From NCBI GenBank assembly GCA_965216915.1, contig CBDCGS010000007.1, positions 21,378 to 85,377 on the forward strand: 64,000 bases of DNA. Direction: 5' to 3'. Source of the DNA: Alphaproteobacteria bacterium. GTDB lineage: Bacteria > Pseudomonadota > Alphaproteobacteria > UBA828. The notes below the pieces were generated by a model. That model was not told the origin of the DNA, ran no database searches, and saw nothing but the letters and a program-made list of their open reading frames with translations. This document shows, in pieces, positions 21,500 to 44,677 of the stretch. A program made the position numbers and the translations under genes. Positions within the stretch are counted from its first letter, which is position 1, and the number at the start of each line of letters is the position of its first letter.

Positions 21500-21725
21500 A
21501 ACGTGCCACGATGAGGTTCGAGAGAGGACGCGCTGACGACCGCGAGCAGCTCCGCTGCCATCTCGGAGATTGTCTCGACGCATGCAACGACGCCCGAAGA
21601 CTGAAGACCCTGAACGGGCTCACACCCTACGAGGCCATCTGACGAGGCCATCTACAGCTCATGGGAAGCCGAACCTCGAACGTTTAGGCTACTTCCTATC
21701 CAGCAAATGACGCGACGAAACACCT
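21500..21725 (+). mobile_element. relic of the 3' end of a DDE (rve/integrase-core type) IS transposase gene
   Basis: The tail of the + frame reads RFERGRADDREQLRCHLGDCLDACNDARRLKTLNGLTPYEAI*. A second frame continues IYSSWEAEPRTFRLLPIQQMTRRNT. This matches the recalled C-terminal consensus ...AYNfarRLKTLkGLTPYEfI...W..EP.RF...PIHQMPGLNT. Frame-broken, with no upstream catalytic domain. Confidence 0.55.
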
Positions 21726-21805
21726 CGCTGGCGTCGGTTCGACGACGAGGGCGTTTTCGGCGGATCGCCCAGCGCGGCGCGGTCGGGCGTGCGGCTCGTC
21801 GAGCT

Positions 21806-21975
21806 GTTAATTAGAGTCATATTGCACCAAAATACGTCAAAATCGTCTCACCGCGCGATGTTAATATAACAAAAGTAATATTCGCAAGGTAGAGGAATTA
21901 AAGGTTGAAGCTAGATCAACCACAGGTTATATTTTTTACCTCATCAGTTGTATGTTAATAGTAGTAAAATCGATG
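21806..21975. other. ~170-bp strongly AT-rich non-coding tract
   Basis: gttaattagagtcatattgcaccaaaatacgtcaaaatcg...gtatgttaatagtagtaaaatcg. No ORF. Contains ATGTTAATA twice (about 21858 and 21951) plus tgttaatta at about 21805. The flanking DNA is GC-rich. Confidence 0.7.
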
Positions 21976-22237
21976 GGATCGCATGGTGATTGCTCGTCCG
22001 CACGAGCGGCCGCGCGGTTGGGGACCGCGGTCGACAGTCGACATCACCCAACGAACACTTGAGCCGTACGCCAGCGGCAGGGCGATGCCTCACCCGCCGA
22101 CGAAGACCATCGCGGGCCTTCGACGTGGGCGCGGCTTGCCTTTTTCGTGTCAGAACCGCAGGCCTTCAAACTGCGGCGGCGCAATAGGTGTGGAGGGGCT
22201 TCGCATTATCGAGGCGCAGGAGGGAACGGACTGCAAC

Positions 22238-22639
22238 ATGATGAAGGACCGTGTGACATTGGACATCCTGCCCGGGACGCTGGCCGAGATCGCCCGGGAG
22301 ACGTCGGTGCCGGTCGCGCTTGCGATCGCCCGCCGATTTGGCGGCACAGACCTCTACGTGCCATTGAACCCGACCGAGCATGATCCTCTCGCCCGCTGTG
22401 TCGGCATCGATGCCGCGAACCGCATCGCCCGTCTCTATGGCGGCGGGCGTGTCGAAATACCCCTCGGCAACACGGCACGACGGGCGGAGCGCAACCGCGC
22501 GATCCGTCGAATGGCCGCGGAGGGGCGCAGCGTGAGCGAGATCGCGCGCCGCTTCGGCATGACCACGCGCAGCATTCGCCGCATCAAGAACGCACGCCGC
22601 GACAAGCATGGCCGGCGCGCACCGCCGCGGCTCCGCTAA
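22238..22639 (+). CDS. Mor (phage Mu middle-operon regulator)-like transcriptional activator
   Basis: ORF 21983..22639(+) trimmed to ATG 22238, preceded by aggaggg. AIARRFGGTDLYVP matches Mu Mor AICKHLGGGQVYIP. C-terminal HTH RSVSEIARRFGMTTRSIRRI. Confidence 0.65.
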   Translation: MMKDRVTLDILPGTLAEIARETSVPVALAIARRFGGTDLYVPLNPTEHDPLARCVGIDAANRIARLYGGGRVEIPLGNTARRAERNRAIRRMAAEGRSVSEIARRFGMTTRSIRRIKNARRDKHGRRAPPRLR

Positions 22640-22778
22640 GCACGACCTTGCCCCCGCGCTGGCCCATCCTGCGGTTCGCCGGCGCGGGGGCGCCGCCGTT
22701 TTCATCCTTGATTAACCCGGTCTCCTCACCCTGACCTCGCGGCGGGCATGTCGCGATTGCGGTTTTGGGGGAGGCGCT

Positions 22779-23687
22779 ATGACGACGAGACGCGGCATCC
22801 TTTTGGCGGGCGGCCATGGCACGCGCCTCGCGCCCCTCACGCGCGGCACGTCCAAGCAGCTGCTGCCGCTGTTCGACAAGCCGATGATCTACTACCCCCT
22901 GACGACACTGATGCGTGCCGGGGTCAGGGAGATTTTGGTGGTGACCGCGGCCGACGCGCTGCCGCGATACCAGGCCCTTCTCGGCGATGGCTCGGCGTTT
23001 GGCATCGAACTTCGCTATGGCCTGCAAGCGGCGCCTCGGGGCATCGCCGAAGCGTTGCTGATCGGCGCGTCCTTCATTGGTGGCATGCCGTGCGTCCTGG
23101 CCCTGGGCGACAACCTGTTTCACGGCCAAAATCTCGACGCGATCATTCGACGCGCGAGCGAGCGCCGCCGCGGTGCGACGATCATCGCGTGTTCCGTCGC
23201 CGAGCCGACGAACTATGGCGTCGTCACATTGGGGGACGACGGAGAGCCGCGCGAGATTGTCGAAAAACCCGTCGCACCGACGTCTGACCTCGCGGTCACC
23301 GGGCTCTATTTCTATGATGACTCAGTCGTCGAGATCGCCCGTGCGCTGCGACCGTCGGCGCGCGGTGAGCTCGAAATCACCGACGTCAACCGCGCCTATC
23401 TCGCGCGCAATCGCCTCACGGTCGAGGTGCTCGATCGCGGTACGACATGGCTCGACGCCGGCACGCCGGAGGCGCTCTTGGCGGCCGCGAATTTCGTGGC
23501 GACCACCGAGCGCCTCAAGGGGCTCAAGATCGGCTGCCCGGAGGCGGTGGCGTGGGAGCAAGGCTGGATCGACGGGTCTGCGCTCGCGCGTCAGGCGGCG
23601 TTGCATGTGGGCACGGCCTATGGCGAGTATCTCTCCCGCATGTTGACGGATGGAGACCTGGTCGAACGCACCGCGGTGAGGGCGTGA
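22779..23687 (+). CDS. rfbA: glucose-1-phosphate thymidylyltransferase
   Basis: ORF 22779..23687(+). GILLAGGHGTRLAPLT...SKQLLPLFDKPMIYYPL is typical RmlA. Confidence 0.95.
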   Translation: MTTRRGILLAGGHGTRLAPLTRGTSKQLLPLFDKPMIYYPLTTLMRAGVREILVVTAADALPRYQALLGDGSAFGIELRYGLQAAPRGIAEALLIGASFIGGMPCVLALGDNLFHGQNLDAIIRRASERRRGATIIACSVAEPTNYGVVTLGDDGEPREIVEKPVAPTSDLAVTGLYFYDDSVVEIARALRPSARGELEITDVNRAYLARNRLTVEVLDRGTTWLDAGTPEALLAAANFVATTERLKGLKIGCPEAVAWEQGWIDGSALARQAALHVGTAYGEYLSRMLTDGDLVERTAVRA

Positions 23688-32043: not shown

Positions 32044-34116
32044 ATGGCGTACCGCATATCCGTCGATACCGGCGGTACCTTCACCGATGCCGTGATCGCG
32101 GATGACAGTGGTCGCCAGACCATCGGGAAGGCGCTCACCACGCCCGCGCGTATTTTCGACGGCATGCGCGATGCGATTGCGGTTGCGGCCGACGAACGCG
32201 AGGTCCCGCTTGGCGCGGTGCTGCGTGACGCGACGATCCTGATCTATGGCACGACCCGGGCCACCAACGCCGTCGTGACCGGGGCCACGGCCAAGACCGC
32301 CTTCCTCACGACCGAAGGGTTTCCCGACGTGTTGGTGTTGCGCGAGGGCGGCAAGTTCAATCCGCATGACTACAGCACCCCTTATCCGGACCCCTACGTC
32401 CCGCGCCGCTACACCTTCGAGATCCACGAGCGGATCGATGCGCAGGGCGAGGTGGCGCGTGCGCTCGACGAGGGGCAAGCCCGCACGGTCATCGAGATGC
32501 TGAAGGCGCGGGGCTTCGAGGCCGTCGCCGTCTCGTTCCTTTGGTCGATTGCCAACCCGGCGCACGAGCAAGCGGTCGGCCGCCTGATTGCCGAGATCAT
32601 GCCCGGCATCCCCTGCACCCTTTCGCATGAGCTGATTCCGATCGTCCGCGAGTACCGCCGGGCCTCGGCGACGGCCATCGATGCCTCGCTCAAACCCCTG
32701 ATGCAGAACCACCTCCGTCAGATGGAGGAGGACCTTCGCGCCGCCGGGTTCTCGGGAGAGACGCTCATCTCGACCTCGGTCGGGGGCTGCCAACATGTCG
32801 CGGACGTGGCGACCAAGCCCATCCACACACTCAAATCGGGCCCCGCGATGGCACCGGTCGGCGGCAAGGCCTACGGCATGATCGAGGCCGTCGGCGGGGA
32901 CGTCATCGTCTGCGACACCGGTGGCACCACGTTCGACGTCGGCCTCGTGCGCGACGGCGGCCTGGTCTATACCCGCGACAGTTGGCTCGGCGGCCAGTGG
33001 CTCGGCCACCTGGTGAGCATGTCGACCGTCGACGTGCGCTCGATCGGGGCCGGCGGCGGCTCCATCGCCTGGGTCGATTCGGGCGGGCTGCTACGCGTCG
33101 GCCCTGCAAGCGCGGGCGCGGTGCCGGGGCCCGCCTGCTACGCCGCCGGGGGCGACAAGCCGACCGTGACCGATGCCGCGCTGGTGCTCGGCTACTTCGA
33201 TGCCGACTACTTCAACGGCGGGCGCATGACGCTGGACCCCGACGCCGCCAACCGCGTCATCCGGGGGCTCGCCGAGACCATCGGGCAGTCGCCGGAGGCG
33301 GCGGCCGCCGCCGTGGTCACGATCGCGAACGAGCTCATGATCAAGGCGATCCACGAGATCACCGTGTCCGAGGGGCTGAACCCGCGGGAGAGCGTGATCG
33401 TCGCGGGCGGCGGCGCGGCCGGGCTCAACATCATGCCGATCGCCCGCGAGCTCGGCTGCGCCACCGTGATCCTGCCCAAGACCGCAAGCGCGCTCTCCGC
33501 CTGCGGCATGCAGTTCTCCGACATCATCAGCGAACACACCGTGAGCCGGGTCACGCTCTCCGGCCGCTTCGACTTCGACGGCGTCAATGCCGCCCTTGCC
33601 GAGATCGATGAGGCGCTGGAGCGCTTTCGGACGAACCTGCCTGGCGGGGCGGCGGCATCCTACGCAAAGACGCTGCTCGTCGAGGCGCGTTATCAATCGC
33701 AGGTGTGGGAGCTCGACACGCCGCTGCCCGTGGCCCGCTTCGAGGATGACGCGGATGTCGAGGCGCTCGTCCAAGCCTTTCACGCCGTGCATGACCGGGT
33801 CTACGCGGTGATCGACGAGGGCAGCCAGGTCGAGTGCGTCAATTGGAAGGGCCGGCTCTCCGTGACCCTTTCGGACCCGCCGGCACCGGCTGCCACTGCA
33901 CCCGCCGCGCACACACCGGAGGCGGAGCGGCGCCGCGATGCCTATTTCCCCGGCATCGGGCGGCGGCCCACGCCCGTGTTCCGCGGGGATGCGCTCGTCG
34001 CCGGCGCCACGATCGAAGGCCCCGCGATCATCGAGGAGCCGACCACGACCATCGTGATCTATCCGGAGATGACCGCGCGGGTCAGCGCCGCAGGCAACTA
34101 CGTGCTGACGGCCTAG
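32044..34116 (+). CDS. hydantoinase/oxoprolinase family protein (HyuA-type, A subunit)
   Basis: ORF 31831..34116(+) trimmed to ATG 32044. YRISVDTGGTFTDAV, VCDTGGTTFDV. Confidence 0.9.
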   Translation: MAYRISVDTGGTFTDAVIADDSGRQTIGKALTTPARIFDGMRDAIAVAADEREVPLGAVLRDATILIYGTTRATNAVVTGATAKTAFLTTEGFPDVLVLREGGKFNPHDYSTPYPDPYVPRRYTFEIHERIDAQGEVARALDEGQARTVIEMLKARGFEAVAVSFLWSIANPAHEQAVGRLIAEIMPGIPCTLSHELIPIVREYRRASATAIDASLKPLMQNHLRQMEEDLRAAGFSGETLISTSVGGCQHVADVATKPIHTLKSGPAMAPVGGKAYGMIEAVGGDVIVCDTGGTTFDVGLVRDGGLVYTRDSWLGGQWLGHLVSMSTVDVRSIGAGGGSIAWVDSGGLLRVGPASAGAVPGPACYAAGGDKPTVTDAALVLGYFDADYFNGGRMTLDPDAANRVIRGLAETIGQSPEAAAAAVVTIANELMIKAIHEITVSEGLNPRESVIVAGGGAAGLNIMPIARELGCATVILPKTASALSACGMQFSDIISEHTVSRVTLSGRFDFDGVNAALAEIDEALERFRTNLPGGAAASYAKTLLVEARYQSQVWELDTPLPVARFEDDADVEALVQAFHAVHDRVYAVIDEGSQVECVNWKGRLSVTLSDPPAPAATAPAAHTPEAERRRDAYFPGIGRRPTPVFRGDALVAGATIEGPAIIEEPTTTIVIYPEMTARVSAAGNYVLTA

Positions 34117-34275
34117 AGTCTCGGGCCCGCGATACTCTGCGCAATTCGGAGACCGGCCGTTCCGATCGGAGCCAACCATGTGGTCCGGCGGCAAGAGATA
34201 GCGCTGGCATTTGCGCGCGCGAGCGGCTACCTCCTACGCATCGCCCGCGGCATCGTGAGCAATGCCGCGACCGGT

Positions 34276-34352
34276 CGGGGTGTGGCGCAGTCTGGCAGCG
34301 CATCTGCTTTGGGAGCAGAGGGTCGCCGGTTCGAATCCGGCCACCCCGACCA
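34276..34352 (+). tRNA. tRNA-Pro (anticodon UGG)
   Basis: Manual cloverleaf: cggggtg/caccccg acceptor, gcgc D-stem, tctgc-tttggga-gcaga anticodon arm, gccgg-ttcgaat-ccggc T-arm, encoded CCA. 77 nt. Confidence 0.9.
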
Positions 34353-34459
34353 ATTATTTCAAGAGGTTGATTCTGGTCGAGCCGCGCGAGACGGCTCTGT
34401 CGTGCGTCCTGGCGCTGAGCCAGGCGACTATGGCGGCAGCGATACCGGCGTTCTCATCG

Positions 34460-35959
34460 TCAGGACGTTTTGTGAGGGTCGTACATCCATCCGGTATTGA
34501 CGACCACGACCTTTTCGTCGGTCCGAATCTCGAACTCATCGCATTTGTCGATGAACAGGCCCAATCCGGCCATTCCGGAGAGCTCCGATTGAATCCCTTC
34601 TCTCTTCGCGATCTGTCTCGCTTCCTCGGCGCGTTTGTCGGGGATGGTGTAGATACCGGACTTGCGCCCCAGAATGCCTTCGTTCTTTAGATTCTTGACC
34701 TTGTTTTCCACGTCCTTTTGTGTCGGTCGGAAGGCGGCGAATAGCTTGTCCATTCTCGTATTGGGCTCGTGGGTTGTTGCTCCGTAAACATTTATCCCTC
34801 TCAAACTATCCATGCTGGGCAGGCTCAAAAGCCTTCTGTCCCGCACCTTCGATTTGCATTCCTTCTCTAGCAACAGCGCGATTCCCGTAAACAAGTCCCC
34901 GGTTCCAAACGGGACAAAAATGTGGCTCGGTTCTACCTGCAATATTTCATAGGTCAGCCAATCATAAAATTGATGACGCTCCGGCGTGACGACATTTCGC
35001 GTCGTAATGTCGATTCCGCCCGGGTTGTTTGTGATTTCCAGGACCAGATCTTCATCCAATTCCTCCGCGTCGAGGTCATAGGGAAACACTTCCGCTCCCA
35101 TGACCCTCAGCCTGGCGATCACGCCCGGGTCGGCGCGTACTTGATCCACGATGACTCGCAGCGGGGGGAGATCGTATTCCTTCAACAGGGTTTGCAGGGC
35201 GTAGGCGGCACTACCACTCGAAATCATTGACAACACAGGGATGCTAATATTTCCACTCACTGGAGATTTCGCGTGGCTCAAGCCTTGTAAAATTTTCTTT
35301 TTATAGAGGATCAACTGCTCCCACGCCCATCGATCCTTGTGGGTTCCCGTGTGATTGCGCGACTCATCCTTGATCAGCAGATTCCGCCCACAAACATCAA
35401 GGGGCATCATGGGTGTGGCTGGAAACCGTGGCGATTTCGGCGGATATTCAGGCCTTTCCGGGTCATCGTCGCTCCTGGGTATGACGATCCAATGCAGAGC
35501 CTGCTTAAGGTGTTCGCGCGAATATCGTGGTCGATTTCCCGCGGTAATACTGTCATCAGTCAGCAATTTTGATAAAAAAACAGGAAAATTCACGTTTGTA
35601 CTAGTGAACAAATCGTCCAAATCAGAGACGTGTTTTCCCTTGTCACTATTTTCTATGTCGGCCGCTCTGTCTTCATAGTATAAGTTGCGCATTGCATGAC
35701 ACAATGCGGTCAATTGAAAAGCATTGTTTTTGAAAACAAAACGTTTTTCTTCTCTAAGAAAGTTTCTGATATGCCGGGGTGTTGGAGTTTCCTTTTCCCC
35801 GATCAACATCGTCATCGCAAAATGGATGTCGGCAACCTGTGCTCCCGTGTCGTCGCACACCTGCAGCGCTGCCTTTCGCAGCGCCTGGTATCGCCCAGCG
35901 GCTTTCCAGAACCTTAGATGCGCCCTTTTGTCCCGCGCCGAAAATACCGAAGAAGGCAC
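34460..35959 (-). CDS. two-domain protein: unknown N-terminal domain (~185 aa) fused to a fold-type-II PLP-dependent enzyme (threonine synthase/cysteine synthase-like)
   Basis: ORF 34460..36139(-) trimmed to GTG 35957-35959, 6 nt after AAGGAG. LIKDESRNHTGTHKDR is the PLP-lysine motif (Lys codon 35336-35338). FVPFGTGDLFTGI is the phosphate-binding loop equivalent. Visibly low GC. Confidence 0.75.
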   Translation of the reverse strand: MPSSVFSARDKRAHLRFWKAAGRYQALRKAALQVCDDTGAQVADIHFAMTMLIGEKETPTPRHIRNFLREEKRFVFKNNAFQLTALCHAMRNLYYEDRAADIENSDKGKHVSDLDDLFTSTNVNFPVFLSKLLTDDSITAGNRPRYSREHLKQALHWIVIPRSDDDPERPEYPPKSPRFPATPMMPLDVCGRNLLIKDESRNHTGTHKDRWAWEQLILYKKKILQGLSHAKSPVSGNISIPVLSMISSGSAAYALQTLLKEYDLPPLRVIVDQVRADPGVIARLRVMGAEVFPYDLDAEELDEDLVLEITNNPGGIDITTRNVVTPERHQFYDWLTYEILQVEPSHIFVPFGTGDLFTGIALLLEKECKSKVRDRRLLSLPSMDSLRGINVYGATTHEPNTRMDKLFAAFRPTQKDVENKVKNLKNEGILGRKSGIYTIPDKRAEEARQIAKREGIQSELSGMAGLGLFIDKCDEFEIRTDEKVVVVNTGWMYDPHKTS

Positions 35960-36375
35960 CGCTCGCTCCTTCTCGACGGTGGTTGATCGGTTGCCGCAAC
36001 GCCCGTGACCGCCGCCCAGCCGCGCGCGAAACCATCTCTCCGCATTGAGGCGTGGCGACGGTCTCCTCTCAGCTGGACGGTAGCAGCGGAGCACGAGAGA
36101 GGCGAAGAGAATTAACCTGGCAATCCGGTGGAAAAACAACGACGCGCCGGGGTTTCCTTTTGCGCGCCGCGCAGCGTCGGGGAAATACGAATGAAATGAG
36201 GTCGGCCAACCCCAGCCGATCCTGCGACAATCCGAAGCATTGATGATTCATGGGAAAAACGTCGACCCGACCGAGGTGACACACGCGGCAATTAACCATT
36301 TTCCCGAAGTTATCCCCACAACAGCGGGAGTGAATCACGGACAATGTTGCGGCGAGTAAACGGAGGAGGAAGGAG

Positions 36376-36564
36376 ATGGACCAGATGACCAAGGGACCGC
36401 AGCAGCCCAGTGACGACCCGCGATCTTGCCGCGCCATCGAGTTTGCCTTCGGGATTGAGGGTCGGGTCGCCCAGCTTCGCGCGTTCGCCTCGTTCGCAAT
36501 TCGCATCAACCATGAGCTGCTCGAGGCATTGCGAGGCCTCCTTCTCGCGGTGCGGAAATCTTGA
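36376..36564 (+). CDS. hypothetical 62-aa protein
   Basis: ORF 36376..36564(+), preceded by the very strong SD run cggaggaggaaggagATG. Host-like codon bias. No recognisable motif. Confidence 0.35.
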   Translation: MDQMTKGPQQPSDDPRSCRAIEFAFGIEGRVAQLRAFASFAIRINHELLEALRGLLLAVRKS

Positions 36565-36771
36565 CCCGATCCCACCGATACCCCGATCGCGCACATCCGA
36601 TGGGCTGCGACCGGGGGGCGGGAGACTCCAAGCACGTGTTCCTTCGGGCGGGCGCCGTTTCTGCGGATCGATTCCCCAGAACCGCCGCGCCGCCCGAACG
36701 CCCGTTAAGGCCCCGTTATAGCCGGCGAAGGAAAATCCTGACCGGCATCTGTTGCCTCGAGGGACCCAACG

Positions 36772-39459
36772 ATGCGCGTTTTGCTGGCTGCCGCTGCGGC
36801 AGCGTTGATCGCCACCGGCGCGGGCGGTTACTGGTATCTGACCACCAAGGTCGAAGCCGAGCCGGTGCCCCGCGACGTGCTGGTGGCCGAGCAGGCGCTC
36901 GCTCTGCCCGGGATCGCTGGCCTCTTTCATCTCGACCTGGCCCATGCCATCGCGGTCGAAGAGTTCTTTCTGGGTGAAGCAGACAGAGACATGCTGTTCG
37001 CGCCCATGGCGGGCTCGGGGACGCTCGTCGATGTGCTGCGCAAGAGTGGGTTGGATCCGCGCCGCTCCGTCAGCCATGTCGTGGGTGCCCTGACGTTCGG
37101 CGAACCGGGGCCGCGCGCCGTGGCCGTTCTGCTCGGCGCGTTCCCGGTCGAGCCGCTGCGCGACCTGCTGTCCGAGCGCTATGACGCCAAGGAGAGCACC
37201 GTCGGCGGGCGCCCGGTCCTTTTGTTCAGCCATCTCGACACCGAAAGCTGCGAGGTGACCGGCCCCTACGCCCTCCATCTTTCGCCGGAGCGCGTCGTGC
37301 TCGGGAACCCGACGCTCGTCGGCACCGTTCTCGCGCGCCTCGACGACGGTGCCGCCTCCACGGTCGATCTGACGGCCTGGCGCGCCCACCGGGATGGCAA
37401 GATCTTGAGCCTGGCGATCTTGCGCGGCCCTCAGGAACTGGCGGCGCAGACACCACCCCCGATGGCGCAGATCGCAACCGGGGACGGCGAGGAGGCGCTC
37501 GAGCCGATCGAGCAGATCTATGCCGGCGTCGCGTTCCAACTGCTGCCGCGGCGTTTGATCGTCAGCACGCGCGTGGTTACCGAAGAACCCGCCTGGGCCG
37601 CCGAGGCGGCCGCCAGCTACGCCGCCTGGACCGACGAGGTCGATGCACGGCTCGGCGCGCAGCTGCCGGCCCTCGCGCGCCTCACGGACAGTCTGAGCGT
37701 CACCGCTGAGGGCGGACAGCTGGCGGCCGAAGCGGCCCTTGACGCTGATTTCGTCGGTCATGCGGGTGCGGTGCCCGGCGAAATCCTGCGGCTTCTGTTC
37801 AACGGGCCCGGTGGTGGCGCGGTGATCATCGGTGATGAGCGTCCGGCAATGGACGAGCAGATTCTGGAACCCGACGAGGTCACCAGCTATCGGGCGAGCG
37901 CGCACCACGCCAACCTAACCGGCTTCGACGCGGCGCTCGAGCACGGCTTCGAAACGGCGGCACTGACCGGTCCCTTCGGACTGCAGGCCGACGAATTTCG
38001 CCTGGTCGAGGTGGAGGGCGAGGAGCTGGTCGAGGTCTCGGTCGAGGCCGTGAGCGGCGAGATTCCGAACATGAGCGTGGACTCCCTGCACGCGGCGCGC
38101 GGAAACGCCCGCGCCCAGCTCGTCATCACCGCGGTGAGCGGCGCCGATGGCGAGGCTCTGTTGCGGGAGGAGCGCTGTGGGGCCGACCGCAACGAGCTCC
38201 CGGGCGGACTCCAGTCCGGCGTGCGCAGCCGCTACGTCGACGAGACGTTTGTCCAGGTTCCGATGGTCCAGGGCAAGAAGACGGTTCGTTTGAACGCTGG
38301 CGTCGGCGTCAATGAGATCGCGTCGATCGCGGGCTACATCGATCTTCGCTTGCCGACGCGGGTCGACGCCCACCGCGTGGAGGCGCCGTTCGACGGCCAG
38401 GCGATCGAGCTGCCGGGATTGCGCATCAGTCTAACCGAGGGCGAGCAAGGCACCGTGAGTTACGAGATCAGCGGCAGCAGCGACCGTGTGCTGGCCGTGC
38501 GCGCGTTGAATGCGGCGGGCCGGTATCTACGCGGCGCAGGCTCGTTTGCATCGGATCGTATCCTGGGTAGCGGCAAGACGGTGCGCAAATCCTTCGCCGG
38601 GACGCCGGCTGCCGTCGAGTTCGTGATCGCCGTCGAGGAAGCTCTCGAACGCTACCCTTTCGAGATTGCATCCGTCGCGCCAGTCTTCGACCGGTGGGAT
38701 CACCCGCAGCCGTTCACCGTCACCGCGACGTCGGCGAAGGCGTTCCGGCGCGAGAGCGCGGCCATCGACCTCAGCGCCGCGTGCGAAGGGCGAGCGGCGG
38801 ACACGCAGGTCACGCCATTCCAAGTCTGCCCGCAATCGGTCGCCGCTCGGTGGGGCGGTCTGACGGGGCAGTTCCAAATTCTCGGCCCTCCATCGCCGGC
38901 CCTGCTGGGCAACTTGTCGGCGTTGGAGCTGCGTCTCGACGCCGTCGACGTGGGAGATGGCGAGACGAGGCCGGTGCCGGTGAACGTGGGGACCTTCCTG
39001 CGGCTCCGCGCGGTCCATGGCAGTGATCATTTGGAGGACACACCCTGGCTTCAGGCCGAGGCCCCCGAGGCCCTCGAGGACAAGGACATCCGGGCCATCC
39101 AAGGCCGGCTCGTGGCGCGCCTGCCGCTCGGCTTCGAGCATCTGACGCTCCCGGTGACCGAGCTCGGCGGCGAGGCCAGCCACGCCAACGGCCTGGCCGC
39201 CCGGCTCGTCGGTTTTTGGAACGGCAGTCTTCAGATCGACGTCCGCGGTCCGCGCGAGCGCATCGTCCAATTCGTGCCCCGAGACGCAGCGGGCCGGGCG
39301 CTGGCCGCGATCAATGCACGCCTCGATGCGACCGACGAGCCCGGCCAATGGCGCGCCTCGCTGTCGGTCTCCGGCCGCCCGACAAGCCTCGACATCGTCC
39401 TGGCAGCCGAGCAGAAGGTCATCGAGTATCCGTTCGCCATGGCGATGGACGGGCGCTAA
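36772..39459 (+). CDS. hypothetical 895-aa membrane-anchored/exported protein
   Basis: ORF 36772..39459(+). N-terminal hydrophobic anchor MRVLLAAAAAALIATGAGGYWYL, GAGGGA 7-8 nt upstream, high GC3 and balanced amino-acid composition. The Arg-rich antisense ORFs are unlike this. No domain recognised. Confidence 0.7.
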   Translation: MRVLLAAAAAALIATGAGGYWYLTTKVEAEPVPRDVLVAEQALALPGIAGLFHLDLAHAIAVEEFFLGEADRDMLFAPMAGSGTLVDVLRKSGLDPRRSVSHVVGALTFGEPGPRAVAVLLGAFPVEPLRDLLSERYDAKESTVGGRPVLLFSHLDTESCEVTGPYALHLSPERVVLGNPTLVGTVLARLDDGAASTVDLTAWRAHRDGKILSLAILRGPQELAAQTPPPMAQIATGDGEEALEPIEQIYAGVAFQLLPRRLIVSTRVVTEEPAWAAEAAASYAAWTDEVDARLGAQLPALARLTDSLSVTAEGGQLAAEAALDADFVGHAGAVPGEILRLLFNGPGGGAVIIGDERPAMDEQILEPDEVTSYRASAHHANLTGFDAALEHGFETAALTGPFGLQADEFRLVEVEGEELVEVSVEAVSGEIPNMSVDSLHAARGNARAQLVITAVSGADGEALLREERCGADRNELPGGLQSGVRSRYVDETFVQVPMVQGKKTVRLNAGVGVNEIASIAGYIDLRLPTRVDAHRVEAPFDGQAIELPGLRISLTEGEQGTVSYEISGSSDRVLAVRALNAAGRYLRGAGSFASDRILGSGKTVRKSFAGTPAAVEFVIAVEEALERYPFEIASVAPVFDRWDHPQPFTVTATSAKAFRRESAAIDLSAACEGRAADTQVTPFQVCPQSVAARWGGLTGQFQILGPPSPALLGNLSALELRLDAVDVGDGETRPVPVNVGTFLRLRAVHGSDHLEDTPWLQAEAPEALEDKDIRAIQGRLVARLPLGFEHLTLPVTELGGEASHANGLAARLVGFWNGSLQIDVRGPRERIVQFVPRDAAGRALAAINARLDATDEPGQWRASLSVSGRPTSLDIVLAAEQKVIEYPFAMAMDGR

Positions 39460-39794
39460 CGCTCCGGTCTCCCGTTCGCCTTGTCTCAAGACGTACGCCC
39501 TTCCGACCAATTTTCGGCTCATCGACTCACTCGGCGCCGAGCGGAAGCGGCAAACCGCGGCTTCCCGGCGGCACAGCGCGTCGAGCGGCGTCAATGTGCC
39601 TTTCACCGTGAGGTTCTGTGCGGGGCCAGCCCGCTGACAACCCGGCACAAATGGAGCATCATCCGCCCAAGTCGGCGCGAACTTCTTCAATCGTTGAAGC
39701 CAACCCTCCGCCGCAGAGGCCTACACGGTGTCGACGGTTTGATCAGCGCCCGTTAGATCATCGTGAAAACTAAATTAGACACCGGCAATATCTG

Positions 39795-40733
39795 ATGCAC
39801 AGCAAAATGATATGCAGTTGGGTCAAGAGCCTCTTGGTTGCGTTCACAGCAACTATTTGTGCTGCATTTTCTGCGATGGCGGATTCTCATTTACCAAGTT
39901 CGCCCAGCGAGTGCTGCAAGGAAATGACAGATTATTTCTCACATCGTGCTCCGATTTTGAAAGAAAGAGATTTATTTAATGGATTTGTTCTGGGTTGTTC
40001 CATCGCTGAGCATCACATAGAAAGCAAAAATGACGCAAAGAAATTTCTTAATACGGATCGCAGCGACTGCAACATACTTTGCTCTCTTGCGGTCGGGATA
40101 AGTGGGTTGGAAAATGCGGCCTGTCGAGATGGCTGTTATTTTTATGGTACTAACTACAGTTCTCGGGGCCGTGAATTCACACATGCTTGGAGTTCCTGCA
40201 GAAAAGATGCTGTGGAGCGAACAACTGTAACGGTGCAGAGTCTGGGTGGGTATTTGACAGTGGAAAAGGGCGATGCCGTAATAGGGCGATTCAAGCATGG
40301 GTGGGGCGCATCGTTGTCAAAAAATCAAATTCATTTGGTGTTTGTCAAGCCAACAAAAACTAGGACAATGGATGATGGAGCAGTTTTATTTATAGATCAG
40401 GACTATTTTTATCTAAATGTCGAAAGTAGAGAAGTCAAAAGATTGTCGTTTACCGGAGGGCGAAAGCAGCTTGGAGCCATTTCCGGAAACGGTAGATTGT
40501 TCGCCTTCTTTGATTTAAACTCGGAAGTTGATCAGGTCATAATTGTGAGGACAGGAGATTTGGATAGCATCAATCTGATCTCGTCTGAAAAGTATGAAGT
40601 TCCTCCTTCAACTATTCCGGAGTGGACCGGGGAAAATGAAATAAGATTCGGATGTTTCGTTACTCGAAATGGCAACCCCTCTCTTAGGTGGTGTATTGGG
40701 GATGTGAATACCAAAACTGTGCGTGTCAAATAA
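39795..40733 (+). CDS. hypothetical secreted Cys-rich protein (312 aa)
   Basis: ORF 39795..40733(+). Signal-peptide-like WVKSLLVAFTATICAAFSAMA, 12 Cys in total with 10 in the N-terminal half (incl. the signal region), beta-rich C-terminal half. Very low GC (line 40321-40380 = 21/60). Confidence 0.7.
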   Translation: MHSKMICSWVKSLLVAFTATICAAFSAMADSHLPSSPSECCKEMTDYFSHRAPILKERDLFNGFVLGCSIAEHHIESKNDAKKFLNTDRSDCNILCSLAVGISGLENAACRDGCYFYGTNYSSRGREFTHAWSSCRKDAVERTTVTVQSLGGYLTVEKGDAVIGRFKHGWGASLSKNQIHLVFVKPTKTRTMDDGAVLFIDQDYFYLNVESREVKRLSFTGGRKQLGAISGNGRLFAFFDLNSEVDQVIIVRTGDLDSINLISSEKYEVPPSTIPEWTGENEIRFGCFVTRNGNPSLRWCIGDVNTKTVRVK

Positions 40734-40972
40734 TCCGTATCTACTATCAGGCCGAACTTAGGCTAACTATCACTCGGGAGACCTTGGCCGAATTTGGTGA
40801 GGCACGAGATATCATCAAAGTCGGCGCAGAATCCAGATTTCGCGCACCGGAGAACGCCGCCTCGCCGCCTCGCCGCCTCTTTGGCGTATGAAGCAGGTCT
40901 TCCACGGCGTGTGCCTGACGTGTCCCGCGAGGATGTGACCAGATGAGACCAGCGCTAAATCACTGAAATAAC

Positions 40973-41049
<77 letters not shown>

Positions 41050-41149
41050 GCGTCGGCGGACCCTACTGCAAGGCGCCGGCCGCGGCAATCCACCCCGGCG
41101 CCTCGGCGGGGCGCGCGCCTGGCTCGCCGCGATCGCGTCTCACCGGTGA

Positions 41150-42046
41150 TCACGCGCGCCGGTACCGCGCCTCTTCATTCGCTGCGGGCTCGGCGGTCAC
41201 GCGCCCGGTCTCGGCCAGGTGGATCAGGTGCGAGAGCACCGTGCGGGCGGCCGCCGCGTGCAGCGCGGGGTCAACGTCGCGGTAGAGCCGCGCGACCATC
41301 GCGGGGATCGTCTCGACGCCCTCGTCGATGCAGCCCAAGATCGCGGCCTCGCGCAGCTTCCTGTGGTTGAGGAGCTGGCGCACGAAGCGCGCCGGCTCGC
41401 GGATCGGCCCGCCATGGGTCGGCCAATAGGTCGCCTCGGCACGCAGCGCGAGCTTGCGGAGCGAAGCCATGTAGGCGCCCATGTCGCCATCGGGCGGCGA
41501 GATCACCGTGGTCGACCAGCCCATCACATGGTCGCCCGAGAACAGCGCGTTCTCCTCGCGCAGGCGAAAGCAGAGATGGTTCGAGGTGTGGCCGGGCGTG
41601 TGCACCGCCTCGAGCGTCCAGCCCGGCCCTTCGAGCGCCGCGCCGTCGGTGATCCGATGGTCCGGCGCGAACGCATAGTCCGCGCCTTCCTCGACCTTCG
41701 GCTCGCCGCGCGCGCCGCCATGCGGGCCGAAGCCGTAGCTCGCCGCGCCGGTCGCGGCTTTGAGGTGGCGCGTCGCGGGCGAGTGGTCGCGGTGCGTGTG
41801 GGTCACGACGAGGTGGCTCACGGTCTCGCCGTCGAGCGCGGCGGTCAGCGCATCGACATGGGCGGCGAGATCGGGCCCGGGATCGATCACCGCCACCGTG
41901 CCGCGGCCCACAATGTAGGTGCCGGTGCCGTAAAAGGTGAAGGCGCTCGGGTTGCGCGCGATGACACGGCGGATCAGCGGCGACACCTGATCGACCACGC
42001 CGTAGTCGAACTCCAACGTGCGGCTGAGCGCGAGACCGTGCGCCAC
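41150..42046 (-). CDS. MBL-fold metallo-hydrolase
   Basis: ORF 41150..42046(-). [11 protein letters not shown] (HxHxDH) and HTPGHTSNH motifs. Confidence 0.85.
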
Positions 42047-42049
42047 GGC

Positions 42050-43153
42050 TCAGGCCTCGTCGGCGTGAATCAGATGCAGGAAGATGTCCTCCAAGTCGGA
42101 TTCGTGGGTCGTGATGTCGAGGATCGTCGCGCCGGCATCCTTGACCGCGTCCAATATCTCGCCGATCTCGGTCTCGTGCCGGCGGTAGCGGACGACGAGC
42201 TGACGCGGCGAGCGGAGCTCGACGGCGAAGCGGCCGAGCGCCTCCGGCACGACCGCATGGTCCTCACCGGTCACGATCACGAGCTCCTTCGTGTCGATGC
42301 GCGCGAGCAGCGCGTGGGTCTCGTCGTAGGCGACGACCGCGCCGTGATGAATGATCGCGATGCGGTCGCAAAGCGCCTCGGCCTCCTCGAGATAGTGGGT
42401 GGTCAGCACCACCGTCGTGCCGCGCTCATTGAGCTGGCGCACATAGCTCCAGAGCTGTTGGCGCAGTTCGACATCCACGCCGGCGGTGGGCTCGTCGAGG
42501 ATGACGATCGGCGGGTCGTGAACCAGCGCCTTGGCGACCATGAGACGCCGCCGCATGCCGCCCGAGAGCGCCCGCGGATAGGTGCTGGCCTGATCGGTGA
42601 GGCCGACCGCGGCGAGAAGCTCGTCGGTGCGCCGCGCGCTTCGGCGCACGCCGTAATAGCCGGCCTGCACCTCGAGCGCCTCGCGCGCCGCGAAGAAGGG
42701 GTCGAGCACCAGCTCTTGCGGCACGACGCCGATCGAGAGGCGCGCGCCGCGCATCTCGCGGTCGAGGTCGTAGCCCCAGATCTGCACGCTGCCGCTCGTC
42801 TTGATGGCGAGGCCGGCCAGGATGTTGATGAAAGTCGATTTGCCGGCGCCATTGGGCCCCAACAGGCCGAAAAAGGCGCCACGCGGGATCGCGAGGTCGA
42901 TGCCTTTCAGCGCTTCGACGGTTTTCTTGCCGCTGCGATAGACCTTGCGCAGTCCCTGCGTCGCGATGGCGTTTGCGGGCGTGGTGCCGCCGGCCATCGC
43001 CCCGCCGCCGGCCATCGCCCTGCCGCCAGCCGTCGCCGCGCCGTCGCGCCCCTGCCGCGCGACGGGATCCGCCGGTCCCCCCGCGTGTCGCAACGATGTC
43101 GTGTCGGCCATGTCGTGGAAACCTCTCGCCGCCGCTTGAACGGCGGCGGGCAA
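42050..43153 (-). CDS. ABC transporter ATP-binding protein (ABC-2/CcmA-like) with Gly/Ala-rich N-terminal extension, start uncertain
   Basis: ORF 42050..43153(-). Walker A GPNGAGKST, signature LSGGMRRR, Walker B VILDEP. The extension contains three 18-nt tandem units. Confidence 0.85.
   Translation of the reverse strand: MPAAVQAAARGFHDMADTTSLRHAGGPADPVARQGRDGAATAGGRAMAGGGAMAGGTTPANAIATQGLRKVYRSGKKTVEALKGIDLAIPRGAFFGLLGPNGAGKSTFINILAGLAIKTSGSVQIWGYDLDREMRGARLSIGVVPQELVLDPFFAAREALEVQAGYYGVRRSARRTDELLAAVGLTDQASTYPRALSGGMRRRLMVAKALVHDPPIVILDEPTAGVDVELRQQLWSYVRQLNERGTTVVLTTHYLEEAEALCDRIAIIHHGAVVAYDETHALLARIDTKELVIVTGEDHAVVPEALGRFAVELRSPRQLVVRYRRHETEIGEILDAVKDAGATILDITTHESDLEDIFLHLIHADEA
42986..43039. 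repeat. 3 x 18-nt imperfect tandem repeat inside a coding N-terminal extension
   Basis: gccgccggccatcgcccc / gccgccggccatcgccct / gccgccagccgtcgccgc, encoding AATAGG-RAMAGG-GAMAGG on the minus strand. Confidence 0.8.
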
Positions 43154-43204
43154 TGGGTATCATCGCCGGCGCGCCGCGGTCAATGTCAGCCGAGCCGAGC
43201 CATC

Positions 43205-43390
43205 GTGGTCACCAAACCGCCAGAAACCGTTTACGTCGAGACCAAAACCATCGCCTGCGATGGTGGCGGCGGCGCGCTGGGGCATCCGCGCGTGTACCTG
43301 AATCTGGAGACCGAGGGCGCGATCGACTGCCCCTATTGCGACCGCCGCTTCGTGTTGAAGGAGGGCGCCAAGGGCGCGGCCGAGCACTAG
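43205..43390 (+). CDS. zinc-finger (zf-CHCC / NDUFS6-like) domain protein
   Basis: Last 61 codons of long ORF 41219..43390(+), GTG start at 43205. IACDGGGGALGHPRVYLNL...IDCPYCDRRF is the zf-CHCC pattern. Confidence 0.6.
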   Translation: MVTKPPETVYVETKTIACDGGGGALGHPRVYLNLETEGAIDCPYCDRRFVLKEGAKGAAEH

Positions 43391-44568
43391 GCCGCGCGGC
43401 TCCCGGCGCGGTCCCCACGCCCGAGGCTTCGCGCGAGCGCGAGCGCAGCCAACCCGCCGATACCGGACATCACGACGGCCGCCCAATAGGCATCCGCCTG
43501 CCACAGGGCATAGAGCCAGCCCGCGAGCAATAGCCCGAGGCCAAGACCGGCGCCGTTGGTCAGAGCCGCGAAGAGGGCCTGCGCCGTGTTGGCCAGCCCG
43601 CCCGGCACGCGCCGCGCGATGAACAGCATCGCGCCGAGATGCATGGCGCCGAACGTGAAGCCATGGAGCGTTTGAGCAAGGAAGAGGAGCCATATCTCGG
43701 CGGTGCTCGCCAAGACCGCCCAGCGCACGACACCGGCGAGCGCCGCGATGAGAAACAGGTGCGCCGGCCCCAGGCGACGCGCCAACGGCGCGCCGAAGGC
43801 GAACAGGATGATCTCGGCGATGACCCCCGTGGACCAGAGCAACCCGACGATCCAGGTCGGGATGCCGATCGCCTGCCAATGCAGGCTGGCGAAGCCGTAG
43901 TAGACCGTGTGGGCGCCATGGATCGCGGCGGTTGCGAGGATGAACAGGCGAAACGGACGGTCCGAGAGCAGCGCGCGGAAGGAGACCGCGGTCGGTGTGC
44001 GGGGTGACGGACGTTCCGGGAGCGCCGCCGACGCGGCGACCAGGATTGCGACCGTCCCGAGCACGAGCCAAACGATCAGCGTGGCAGACGGCGCGCGCTC
44101 GGCCTCGAGGGCCGCGCCGCCGAGCGCGGCGGCGGCGACGAAGGCGACCGATCCCCAGAGGCGCACGCGACCATAGCCGGCTTCGGCCGAGACGCTGCGC
44201 AGGGCAAGGGTCTCGCCGAAAGGAAGCACGCTCGCATAGGCGAGGGAAAAGGCCGCTGTCGCGAGGAGGAGCGGCCAGAAGCCGGCCGTCCAGAAGAACG
44301 GCACCATCAGCATGAGCGCGAGCACCGCCGCGAGCACCAGCGGCGCCCGGGTCGTGCCGGCGCGATCGGCATAGCGTCCGATGAAGGGGCCGATGCCCGC
44401 GCGAAGCCACAGGGCGAGGCCGAGCACGAGGCCGATCTCCGCGCTCTCGAGGCCGCGCGCACCCAGATAGAGCGGCCAAAACGGCAGCATGACGCCGGCC
44501 ACGAGAAAGTAGGCGGCGTAGAATGCGGACAGGCGCAGGGCGCTGCCGGCGTGCGCGCGCGGGTTCAT
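43387..44568 (-). CDS. MFS transporter
   Basis: ORF 43387..44631(-) trimmed to ATG 44566-44568. About 12 hydrophobic segments. LRLSAFYAAYFLVAGVMLPFWPLYL is typical of the HcaT/MFS_1_like group. Confidence 0.85.
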   Translation of the reverse strand: MNPRAHAGSALRLSAFYAAYFLVAGVMLPFWPLYLGARGLESAEIGLVLGLALWLRAGIGPFIGRYADRAGTTRAPLVLAAVLALMLMVPFFWTAGFWPLLLATAAFSLAYASVLPFGETLALRSVSAEAGYGRVRLWGSVAFVAAAALGGAALEAERAPSATLIVWLVLGTVAILVAASAALPERPSPRTPTAVSFRALLSDRPFRLFILATAAIHGAHTVYYGFASLHWQAIGIPTWIVGLLWSTGVIAEIILFAFGAPLARRLGPAHLFLIAALAGVVRWAVLASTAEIWLLFLAQTLHGFTFGAMHLGAMLFIARRVPGGLANTAQALFAALTNGAGLGLGLLLAGWLYALWQADAYWAAVVMSGIGGLAALALARSLGRGDRAGSRAA

Positions 44569-44677
44569 GCGTCGGGCCTCTTGGGCGGGGATGCGCGGGC
44601 GTGGCATAGTGGCTCGGCGCGCTGCATGCAAGGGCGCGCTCGGCGCCAGTGCCGGCCAACGAACAATCGGGGGAATC

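Follow-up and report, generated by a model that had tools for sequence, protein, structure and literature searches.

Two low-GC single-gene islets beside tRNA genes probably bracket a native gene in an alphaproteobacterial locus of unannotated genes

When two transfer RNA (tRNA) genes point their 3' ends at each other and every product encoded between them is unannotated, is the DNA in between one functional system, one integrated island or a patchwork of unrelated pieces? We examined such an interval, positions 34353-40972 of a 64,000-nt stretch of DNA (here called the window; GenBank assembly GCA_965216915.1, contig CBDCGS010000007.1, positions 21,378 to 85,377) from an alphaproteobacterium of the UBA828 lineage. 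The interval contains a gene for a 499-aa protein related to pyridoxal 5'-phosphate (PLP) enzymes, a 62-aa open reading frame (ORF), a gene for an 895-aa protein and a 312-aa ORF. An initial annotation, made from the letters of the DNA, had favoured a separate old insertion at each of the two tRNAs, flanking a gene pair of native composition, and had offered a single undescribed functional module as the alternative. We found the locus to be a compositional mosaic of an ordinary kind, made up of unannotated genes, and not a system. The 3' end of a tRNA gene is a classical position for genomic islands, and the interval is probably a composite in which two independent single-gene islets, each lying by such a 3' end, bracket a native gene.

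ARAGORN and Rfam agreed with the initial annotation on the identity and positions of tRNA-Pro(UGG) and tRNA-Arg(CCG) (Table 1), found exactly two tRNA genes in the whole 64 kb and placed their 3' ends facing each other; the ORF coordinates and the 416- and 335-nt spacers recorded earlier were likewise all exact on re-check. G+C (GC) content, calculated in 600-nt windows over the 64 kb, had a mean of 0.661 and a standard deviation of 0.046, and its lowest two troughs were located at 34300-35800 (minimum 0.46, near 35200) and 39400-40600 (minimum 0.437, near 40000). The low/high/low mosaic first suspected from hand counts of single lines (24/60, 21/60 and 41/60 G+C, all of them exact) was therefore real. 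Low-GC DNA began at 34353, immediately 3' of tRNA-Pro, and the second low-GC block stopped ~180-240 nt short of the 3' end of tRNA-Arg. The three large genes fell into three compositional classes, as judged by GC at third codon positions (GC3): 0.60 for the PLP gene (overall GC 0.51), 0.83 for the 895-aa gene (GC 0.69) and 0.42 for the 312-aa gene (GC 0.44), with values of 0.81-0.91 in most flanking genes.

The gene in the middle of this mosaic belongs to its host. The GC3 of the 895-aa gene was indistinguishable from that of the host, and GC content across its family tracked that of the respective hosts from 0.34 to 0.69. Members of the family were solitary and stood amid unrelated housekeeping genes; in one locus (L166) the gene lay between parC and recO, and in another (L162) its neighbours were a DUF8034 gene and rotamase genes. 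Comparison with the nearest relatives (L009 and L011, 75% nucleotide identity) showed homology that began 11-41 nt upstream of the ATG of the 895-aa gene and ended at its stop codon, and the flanks of the closest relatives were unrelated to the window. No relative of the protein was found in plasmids. The 895-aa gene is a resident envelope-protein gene and not island cargo.

These observations also bear on the idea that a single ancient island spans the whole interval, with the 895-aa gene either part of its cargo or a later arrival and all mobility genes subsequently lost. Such an island would fit an interval bounded by two tRNAs, and it finds a parallel in another lineage, in which a homolog of the 895-aa protein adjoins an island-integration site at tRNA-Thr. 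In that lineage an 893-aa homolog was encoded downstream of an intact tRNA-Thr(UGU) in one locus (L164:45-336), and in a second (L165:473-2059) an integrase gene, followed within ~150 nt by a duplicated tRNA-Thr 3' part of ~50 nt, was located upstream of the same homolog; downstream of the tRNA-Thr part the two loci were identical, and they represent a textbook case of an empty and an occupied tRNA integration site. However, a single island in the window is difficult to reconcile with the host-like composition of the 895-aa gene and its family, with two low-GC genes that are strongly unlike each other (GC3 0.60 versus 0.42) and with an interval free of repeats and of any integrase, and we regard it as very unlikely.

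Direct signs of integration were sought in several ways. No recombinase Pfam domain was detected in the four ORFs of the locus, and tblastn of positions 34000-41200 with four integrases from related loci, as well as with AlpA and relaxase queries, returned nothing. A search for remnants of attachment (att) sites, which the initial annotation had proposed, covered 34353-40972, which was compared with both tRNAs by k-mers and by fuzzy matching and was scanned for direct and inverted repeats; it yielded only one 10-mer, which lies within the PLP gene at 34563 (a 13/15 match), a chance-level result given a calculated expectation of ~0.9. Scanning 185,579 species genomes for hyuA, the gene on the left flank, gave 70 loci, the best relatives being 70-79% identical; a tRNA near hyuA was found in 0 of the 20 loci scanned for one, and other window genes in 0 of the 70, all of these relatives being no more than 79% identical.

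The earlier proposal of two separate insertions thus held with respect to composition and to the solitary, host-GC-matching 895-aa family, but insertion at the tRNAs is inferred, with neither an integrase remnant nor an att repeat to mark it. Several points count against two islets around a native gene. Because the locus holds no integrase fragment and no tRNA-derived direct repeat, the case for tRNA-targeted integration is circumstantial, and the searched collections held no genome close enough to display the islets as presence/absence polymorphisms. The neighbours of the 895-aa gene differ even in its nearest relatives, so the whole region may be rearranged and not native DNA with two inserts. 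The divergent layout of the PLP gene and the 62-aa ORF/895-aa gene makes shared regulation formally possible.

Two islets around a native gene nonetheless remain our preferred account. The 895-aa gene would be resident and vertically inherited, and on each side of it, 3' of the tRNA, one gene would have been acquired horizontally from a donor of lower GC. Islet A would carry an accessory PLP enzyme stranded without the partner enzymes that are found beside some of its relatives, and islet B an ORFan encoding a secreted Cys-rich protein. Acquisition may have proceeded by island integration at the tRNA genes, or by recombination beside them, and the integrase and att sites would have been lost later. 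The interval resembles tRNA-associated islands in having, on either side, DNA of foreign composition next to a tRNA 3' end, and in its accessory cargo; it differs in that each islet is one gene of ~1.3-1.6 kb, and in lacking both an integrase, even as a fragment, and a duplicated tRNA 3' segment, whereas L165 has an integrase gene and such a segment.

Of the three large proteins, the PLP protein could be described most closely. The initial annotation had called it a fusion of an unknown domain to a PLP enzyme, and Pfam bore this out with a match of PF00291 that covered residues 182-490 and scored 82.7 bits (cut-off 35, E 3.8e-23). The longest ORF extends from TTG 36139 (559 aa), but an AAGGAG located 6 nt ahead of GTG 35959 (499 aa), together with the matching N-termini of homologs, speaks for a start at that codon. 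The resulting protein comprises an all-helical N-domain (residues ~8-130), a conserved Pro-rich linker (~150-185) and a fold-type II domain (182-490), in which the catalytic Lys208 lies within the motif HKDRWAWE and follows the Schiff-base pattern (S/T)xKDR. A search of 5.8 billion proteins gave 641 homologs, of which ~25 had the full architecture, at 35-46% identity. An alignment of 26 full-length sequences, including the protein from the window, contained 50 invariant columns, among them K208 and the loop G352-T-G354; because the catalytic Lys and the Gly phosphate loop are invariant across the family alignment, the enzyme looks intact.

Structure prediction was consistent with this architecture. 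The AlphaFold model (predicted local distance difference test score, pLDDT, 84) consisted of a helical N-domain followed by the PLP fold, and its best Foldseek matches were threonine synthase, cysteine synthase and serine racemase at 15-20% identity, with E values of 1e-10 to 1e-12 for 6nmx, 8b9y and 3l6r; against 6nmx (threonine synthase) the E value was 2e-12 and the TM-score, normalised to the target, 0.65. A single-sequence search of the PDB gave no match, sequence-only PDB searches being barely able to detect fold-type II enzymes. The protein fell far under every NCBIfam equivalog cut-off; its best score, for threonine synthase, was 36.8 bits where 421 are required, so that it does not qualify as a threonine synthase equivalog. 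A match of the N-domain to SLATT_6 (E 0.23) was dropped, as the domain contains no strongly hydrophobic window and is modelled as a soluble helical bundle. The protein shares with fold-type II enzymes such as threonine synthase, CysK/O-acetylserine sulfhydrylase and serine racemase/dehydratase an above-cut-off PF00291 match, the (S/T)xKDR pattern, the Gly-rich loop and the predicted fold, but it is only 15-20% identical to the solved members and has an extra helical N-domain of 140 residues and a conserved Pro-rich segment ahead of the PLP domain. By its fold, the enzyme would most likely catalyse an amino-acid transformation by beta-elimination or beta-replacement.

A neighbour-joining tree of the PLP domain was divided into three architecture-coherent blocks: stand-alone forms of ~340 aa, fusions of TIR_2 to the PF00291 (PALP) domain, and an N-extended clade with a helical or other N-extension of 130-165 aa, to which the protein from the window belongs. 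Within the helical-N clade the neighbours varied and were linked to amino acids. In two distinct contig pairs (L001/L002 and L005/L006), the relative was divergent from a WelO5-family (PF22814) iron/2-oxoglutarate-dependent (Fe/2OG) gene and a gene for a 213-aa protein with a faint tRNA_SAD match; in L003/L004 it was divergent from genes for S-adenosylmethionine synthetase (MetK) and a methionyl-tRNA synthetase (MetRS)-like protein. An aminotransferase gene neighboured the relative in L082, and in L087, L089 and L092 the neighbours included a cluster that resembled amino-acid permeases by the look of its sequences, not by domain scan. The WelO5-type and MetK/MetRS-type cassettes look like small amino-acid or antimetabolite cassettes. 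L001 lay within an integrase island, and L005 was a three-gene cassette amid housekeeping genes with no integrase within the 8 kb examined on each side.

Genes of the N-extended clade had a GC content 5-15 points under that of the rest of the locus in seven of the ten loci measured. The stand-alone forms were found on low-GC contigs with seemingly ordinary metabolic or regulatory neighbours, as judged by sequence, of which only one, an AsnC-type regulator, was confirmed by Pfam. Clustering of neighbours over 88 loci gave no partner common to more than 8 of them, and no relative of the family was found among plasmids, phages or IMG/VR.

Enzymes like serine hydroxymethyltransferase (SHMT) have a PLP fold type other than that of PF00291. 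The relatives in L001/L002 and L005/L006, divergent from a WelO5-family Fe/2OG gene, have a pairing like that of the paz genes: pazAB is a two-step non-canonical amino-acid cassette in which an Fe/2OG halogenase or hydroxylase is paired with a PLP enzyme (PMC10760155). The likeness has its limits, in that PazB is SHMT-like (PMC10760155) and the window contains neither an Fe/2OG partner nor, by tblastn, a remnant of one. More broadly, tblastn of the locus with proteins from the related loci detected no remnant of a WelO5-like, MetK, MetRS or aminotransferase gene. Our reading of the PLP gene is that it encodes an intact but divergent accessory fold-type II enzyme that moves horizontally and is an orphan here.

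The TIR-fused sister clade invites a different view of this gene, namely that it is a single-gene conflict or defence element, in which the helical N-domain would act as a sensor or effector in place of the TIR domain of the sister clade and the PLP domain would use up or transform a metabolite derived from an amino acid when the cell is infected. TIR_2-PALP fusions made up ~30 of the top 120 homologs of the PLP protein. In three independent metagenomic loci (L007, L084 and L088), the TIR_2-PALP gene came directly after a gene encoding a 260-300-aa CAP12/Pycsar-effector-like TIR protein (PF10137), which matched the CBASS-effector TIR, PycTIR or PDC-S35 models of PADLOC; the TIR-PALP protein itself matched no PADLOC v2 model. 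Integrase genes were present near L007 and L008, with helix-turn-helix genes also near L007 and a relaxase-like gene in L008. Our literature search on TIR combined with PLP in defence returned nothing relevant, and we found no paper describing the TIR-PALP pairing. From this gene order, the TIR-effector-like gene and its TIR-PALP neighbour are a candidate two-gene conflict module.

For the window, the affinity to these modules and the lower GC of the PLP family relative to its hosts are set against a series of contrary observations. The TIR fusions form a neighbour-joining clade of their own, apart from the helical-N clade; the protein from the window has no TIR domain and no PADLOC match; and the neighbours of helical-N relatives are amino-acid-metabolism genes (dioxygenase, MetK/MetRS, aminotransferase) together with the permease-like cluster judged by sequence. 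In addition, no defence genes lie nearby in the window, and neither phages nor plasmids nor IMG/VR contain a member of the family. The likeness to Thoeris and to CBASS/Pycsar TIR effectors is therefore one of the sister clade, which is fused to TIR_2 and in three loci follows a CAP12/Pycsar-like TIR gene, and differs from the protein in the window, which belongs to another clade and has no TIR neighbour. We consider a defence role for the PLP gene unlikely. A more novel form of the idea is to our minds just as improbable. In it, the helical-N/PALP protein would be a functional one-gene representative of an undescribed family of PLP-based conflict proteins, which make or destroy an amino-acid-derived metabolite, be it as an antimetabolite or as phage defence; domain swapping would link this family to the TIR-PALP fusions found paired with CBASS/Pycsar-like TIR effectors.

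The gene of islet B had no relative that we could find. The 312-aa protein matched only itself among 5.8 billion proteins, gave no Pfam, PADLOC or PHROG match and had no relative in plasmids, phages or IMG/VR. The chance of a stop-free frame of 312 codons in DNA of 44% GC, calculated from base frequencies, is ~1e-8, and because a frame that long is very unlikely to arise by chance we take the ORF to be a real gene. Its description in the initial annotation as Cys-rich and secreted agreed with a hydrophobic, signal-peptide-like N-terminus and 12 Cys residues, of which 8 fall within residues 40-135; the C-terminal half was beta-rich, and a TolB/PD40-like match was non-significant (E 0.07). The 312-aa gene is a real ORFan of foreign composition.

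The standing of the 62-aa ORF is less clear. The exceptionally strong Shine-Dalgarno sequence noted earlier was present, as the run GGAGGAGGAAGGAG directly precedes the ORF, and GC at the three codon positions (0.67/0.46/0.73) followed a coding-like pattern. No homolog was found in 166 loci fetched for comparison (1.94 Mb in all), and in the closest relatives of the 895-aa gene the DNA ahead of that gene lacked the ORF. We regard its coding status as uncertain; of the native-composition gene pair originally proposed, the 895-aa gene stood as native but the 62-aa ORF did not find support in relatives.

The same 166 loci also served to examine the notion of one module, in which the cytoplasmic PLP enzyme would make or modify a small molecule acting together with two exported proteins. 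The layout is compatible with this notion, as the genes are adjacent and bounded by two tRNAs, the PLP gene is divergent from the 62-aa ORF/895-aa pair and every product is unannotated. With all four products as tblastn queries, however, a homolog of the PLP protein was detected in 88 loci and an 895-family homolog in 8, and no locus held any two of the four. The initial annotation had itself proposed this comparison and had taken an absence of co-occurrence to speak against a system, and absence is what we observed. The three codon compositions differ, the 895-aa family is solitary in housekeeping contexts, the relatives of the PLP protein have other partners or none, and the 312-aa protein occurs in this genome only. 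None of the four products matched PADLOC-DB v2 at E ≤ 1 and none matched the PHROG library, which, together with the lack of integrase similarity, agreed with the earlier statement that the locus bears no recombinase or defence hallmark. The absence of co-occurrence largely refutes the single-module reading, which we now hold to be highly improbable.

Although unconnected to the genes on either side, the 895-aa protein is part of a substantial family. The hydrophobic helix at its N-terminus matched the earlier label of a membrane-anchored protein. A word-indexed search gave four close homologs at 49-72% identity, and a HMMER profile search of 1.84 billion representatives recovered 381 clusters (defined at 50% identity) at E ≤ 1e-3, 199 of which were at E ≤ 1e-30; most matches were full length, at 880-1030 aa. 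All source names were 'hypothetical protein', and named members came mostly from metagenome-assembled genomes of Alphaproteobacteria. Pfam and NCBIfam gave no consistent family for 8 long or 50 diverse members, with scattered single matches only, and profile searches of the PDB gave nothing significant. Gly122, Gly400, Pro401 and Cys469 were invariant in the family, and a Cys at 160 was nearly so. The AlphaFold model, built from a five-sequence alignment, was poor (pLDDT 52) with beta-rich segments, and Foldseek returned no credible match for it (E above 0.04). The product is predicted to be an N-terminally anchored, beta-rich periplasmic or envelope protein, and the proteobacterial family of which it is a member is large and uncharacterised.

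Table 1. Positions of the locus features in the 64-kb window, and of gene cassettes and pairs in loci that carry relatives of the PLP protein.
Feature	Position	Strand	Details	Basis
tRNA-Pro(UGG)	34276-34352	+	encoded CCA end; left boundary	ARAGORN; Rfam RF00005, 67.4 bits
Islet A	34353-35990		low GC (0.45-0.55), ~1.6 kb; PLP gene sole content	composition profile
PLP gene	34460-35959	-	499 aa
Divergent spacer	35960-36375		416 nt, GC 0.59
62-aa ORF	36376-36564	+
895-aa gene	36772-39459	+
Spacer	39460-39794		335 nt; GC dropping from 0.68 to 0.49 along its length; left edge of islet B
Islet B	~39600-40800		low GC (0.42-0.49); holds the 312-aa ORF
312-aa ORF	39795-40733	+
tRNA-Arg(CCG)	40973-41049	-	encoded CCA end; right boundary	ARAGORN; Rfam, 70.8 bits
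Divergent PLP-relative cassette	L001:6061-9458
Divergent PLP-relative cassette	L005:6054-9455
Divergent PLP-relative cassette	L003:4737-9452
TIR gene + TIR_2-PALP pair	L007:7118-9779
TIR gene + TIR_2-PALP pair	L084:1238-3721
TIR gene + TIR_2-PALP pair	L088:1613-4209

The interval is flanked on the left by the hydantoinase A gene (hyuA) and on the right by genes for a metallo-beta-lactamase (MBL)-fold hydrolase and an ABC ATPase. The spacers of the locus, the 416-nt divergent one included, gave no match to an RNA family in Rfam, and in the divergent spacer tblastn also detected no trace of the partner genes of homologs or of integrases; promoter and terminator scans gave results near the expectation from shuffled sequence. 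On the right flank, a 723-aa ORF (41219-43390) runs for the most part antisense to the genes for the MBL-fold hydrolase and the ABC ATPase and as a whole is probably no gene; its last 50 residues contain a zf-CHCC domain (PF10276, E 6e-17), and because that match is significant a small genuine gene is suggested at window positions 43244-43351 (+). AT skew was strongly positive (maximum 0.43) at window positions 43387-44631 (-); the skew looks ordinary and coincides with a minus-strand ORF of 414 aa that is very hydrophobic and membrane-protein-like by sequence. A third, shallower dip in GC (0.54-0.57) was located at 21650-22780 of the window, in a 1.1-kb gap separating large genes, and holds a 218-aa ORF (21983-22639, +) whose C-terminus is helix-turn-helix-like.

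The window itself matters little, as it is typical of accessory DNA beside tRNAs, and to call it a system would mislead. The 895-aa family, which has no Pfam, NCBIfam or PDB coverage, would be a reasonable choice for curation as a family and for structure prediction. The PLP family displays clade-specific N-terminal modules, and the lead of greatest interest is found beyond the window, in the pairing of a TIR-effector-like gene with TIR-PALP, a candidate module that is absent from PADLOC v2 and may point to a conflict function in that sister clade.

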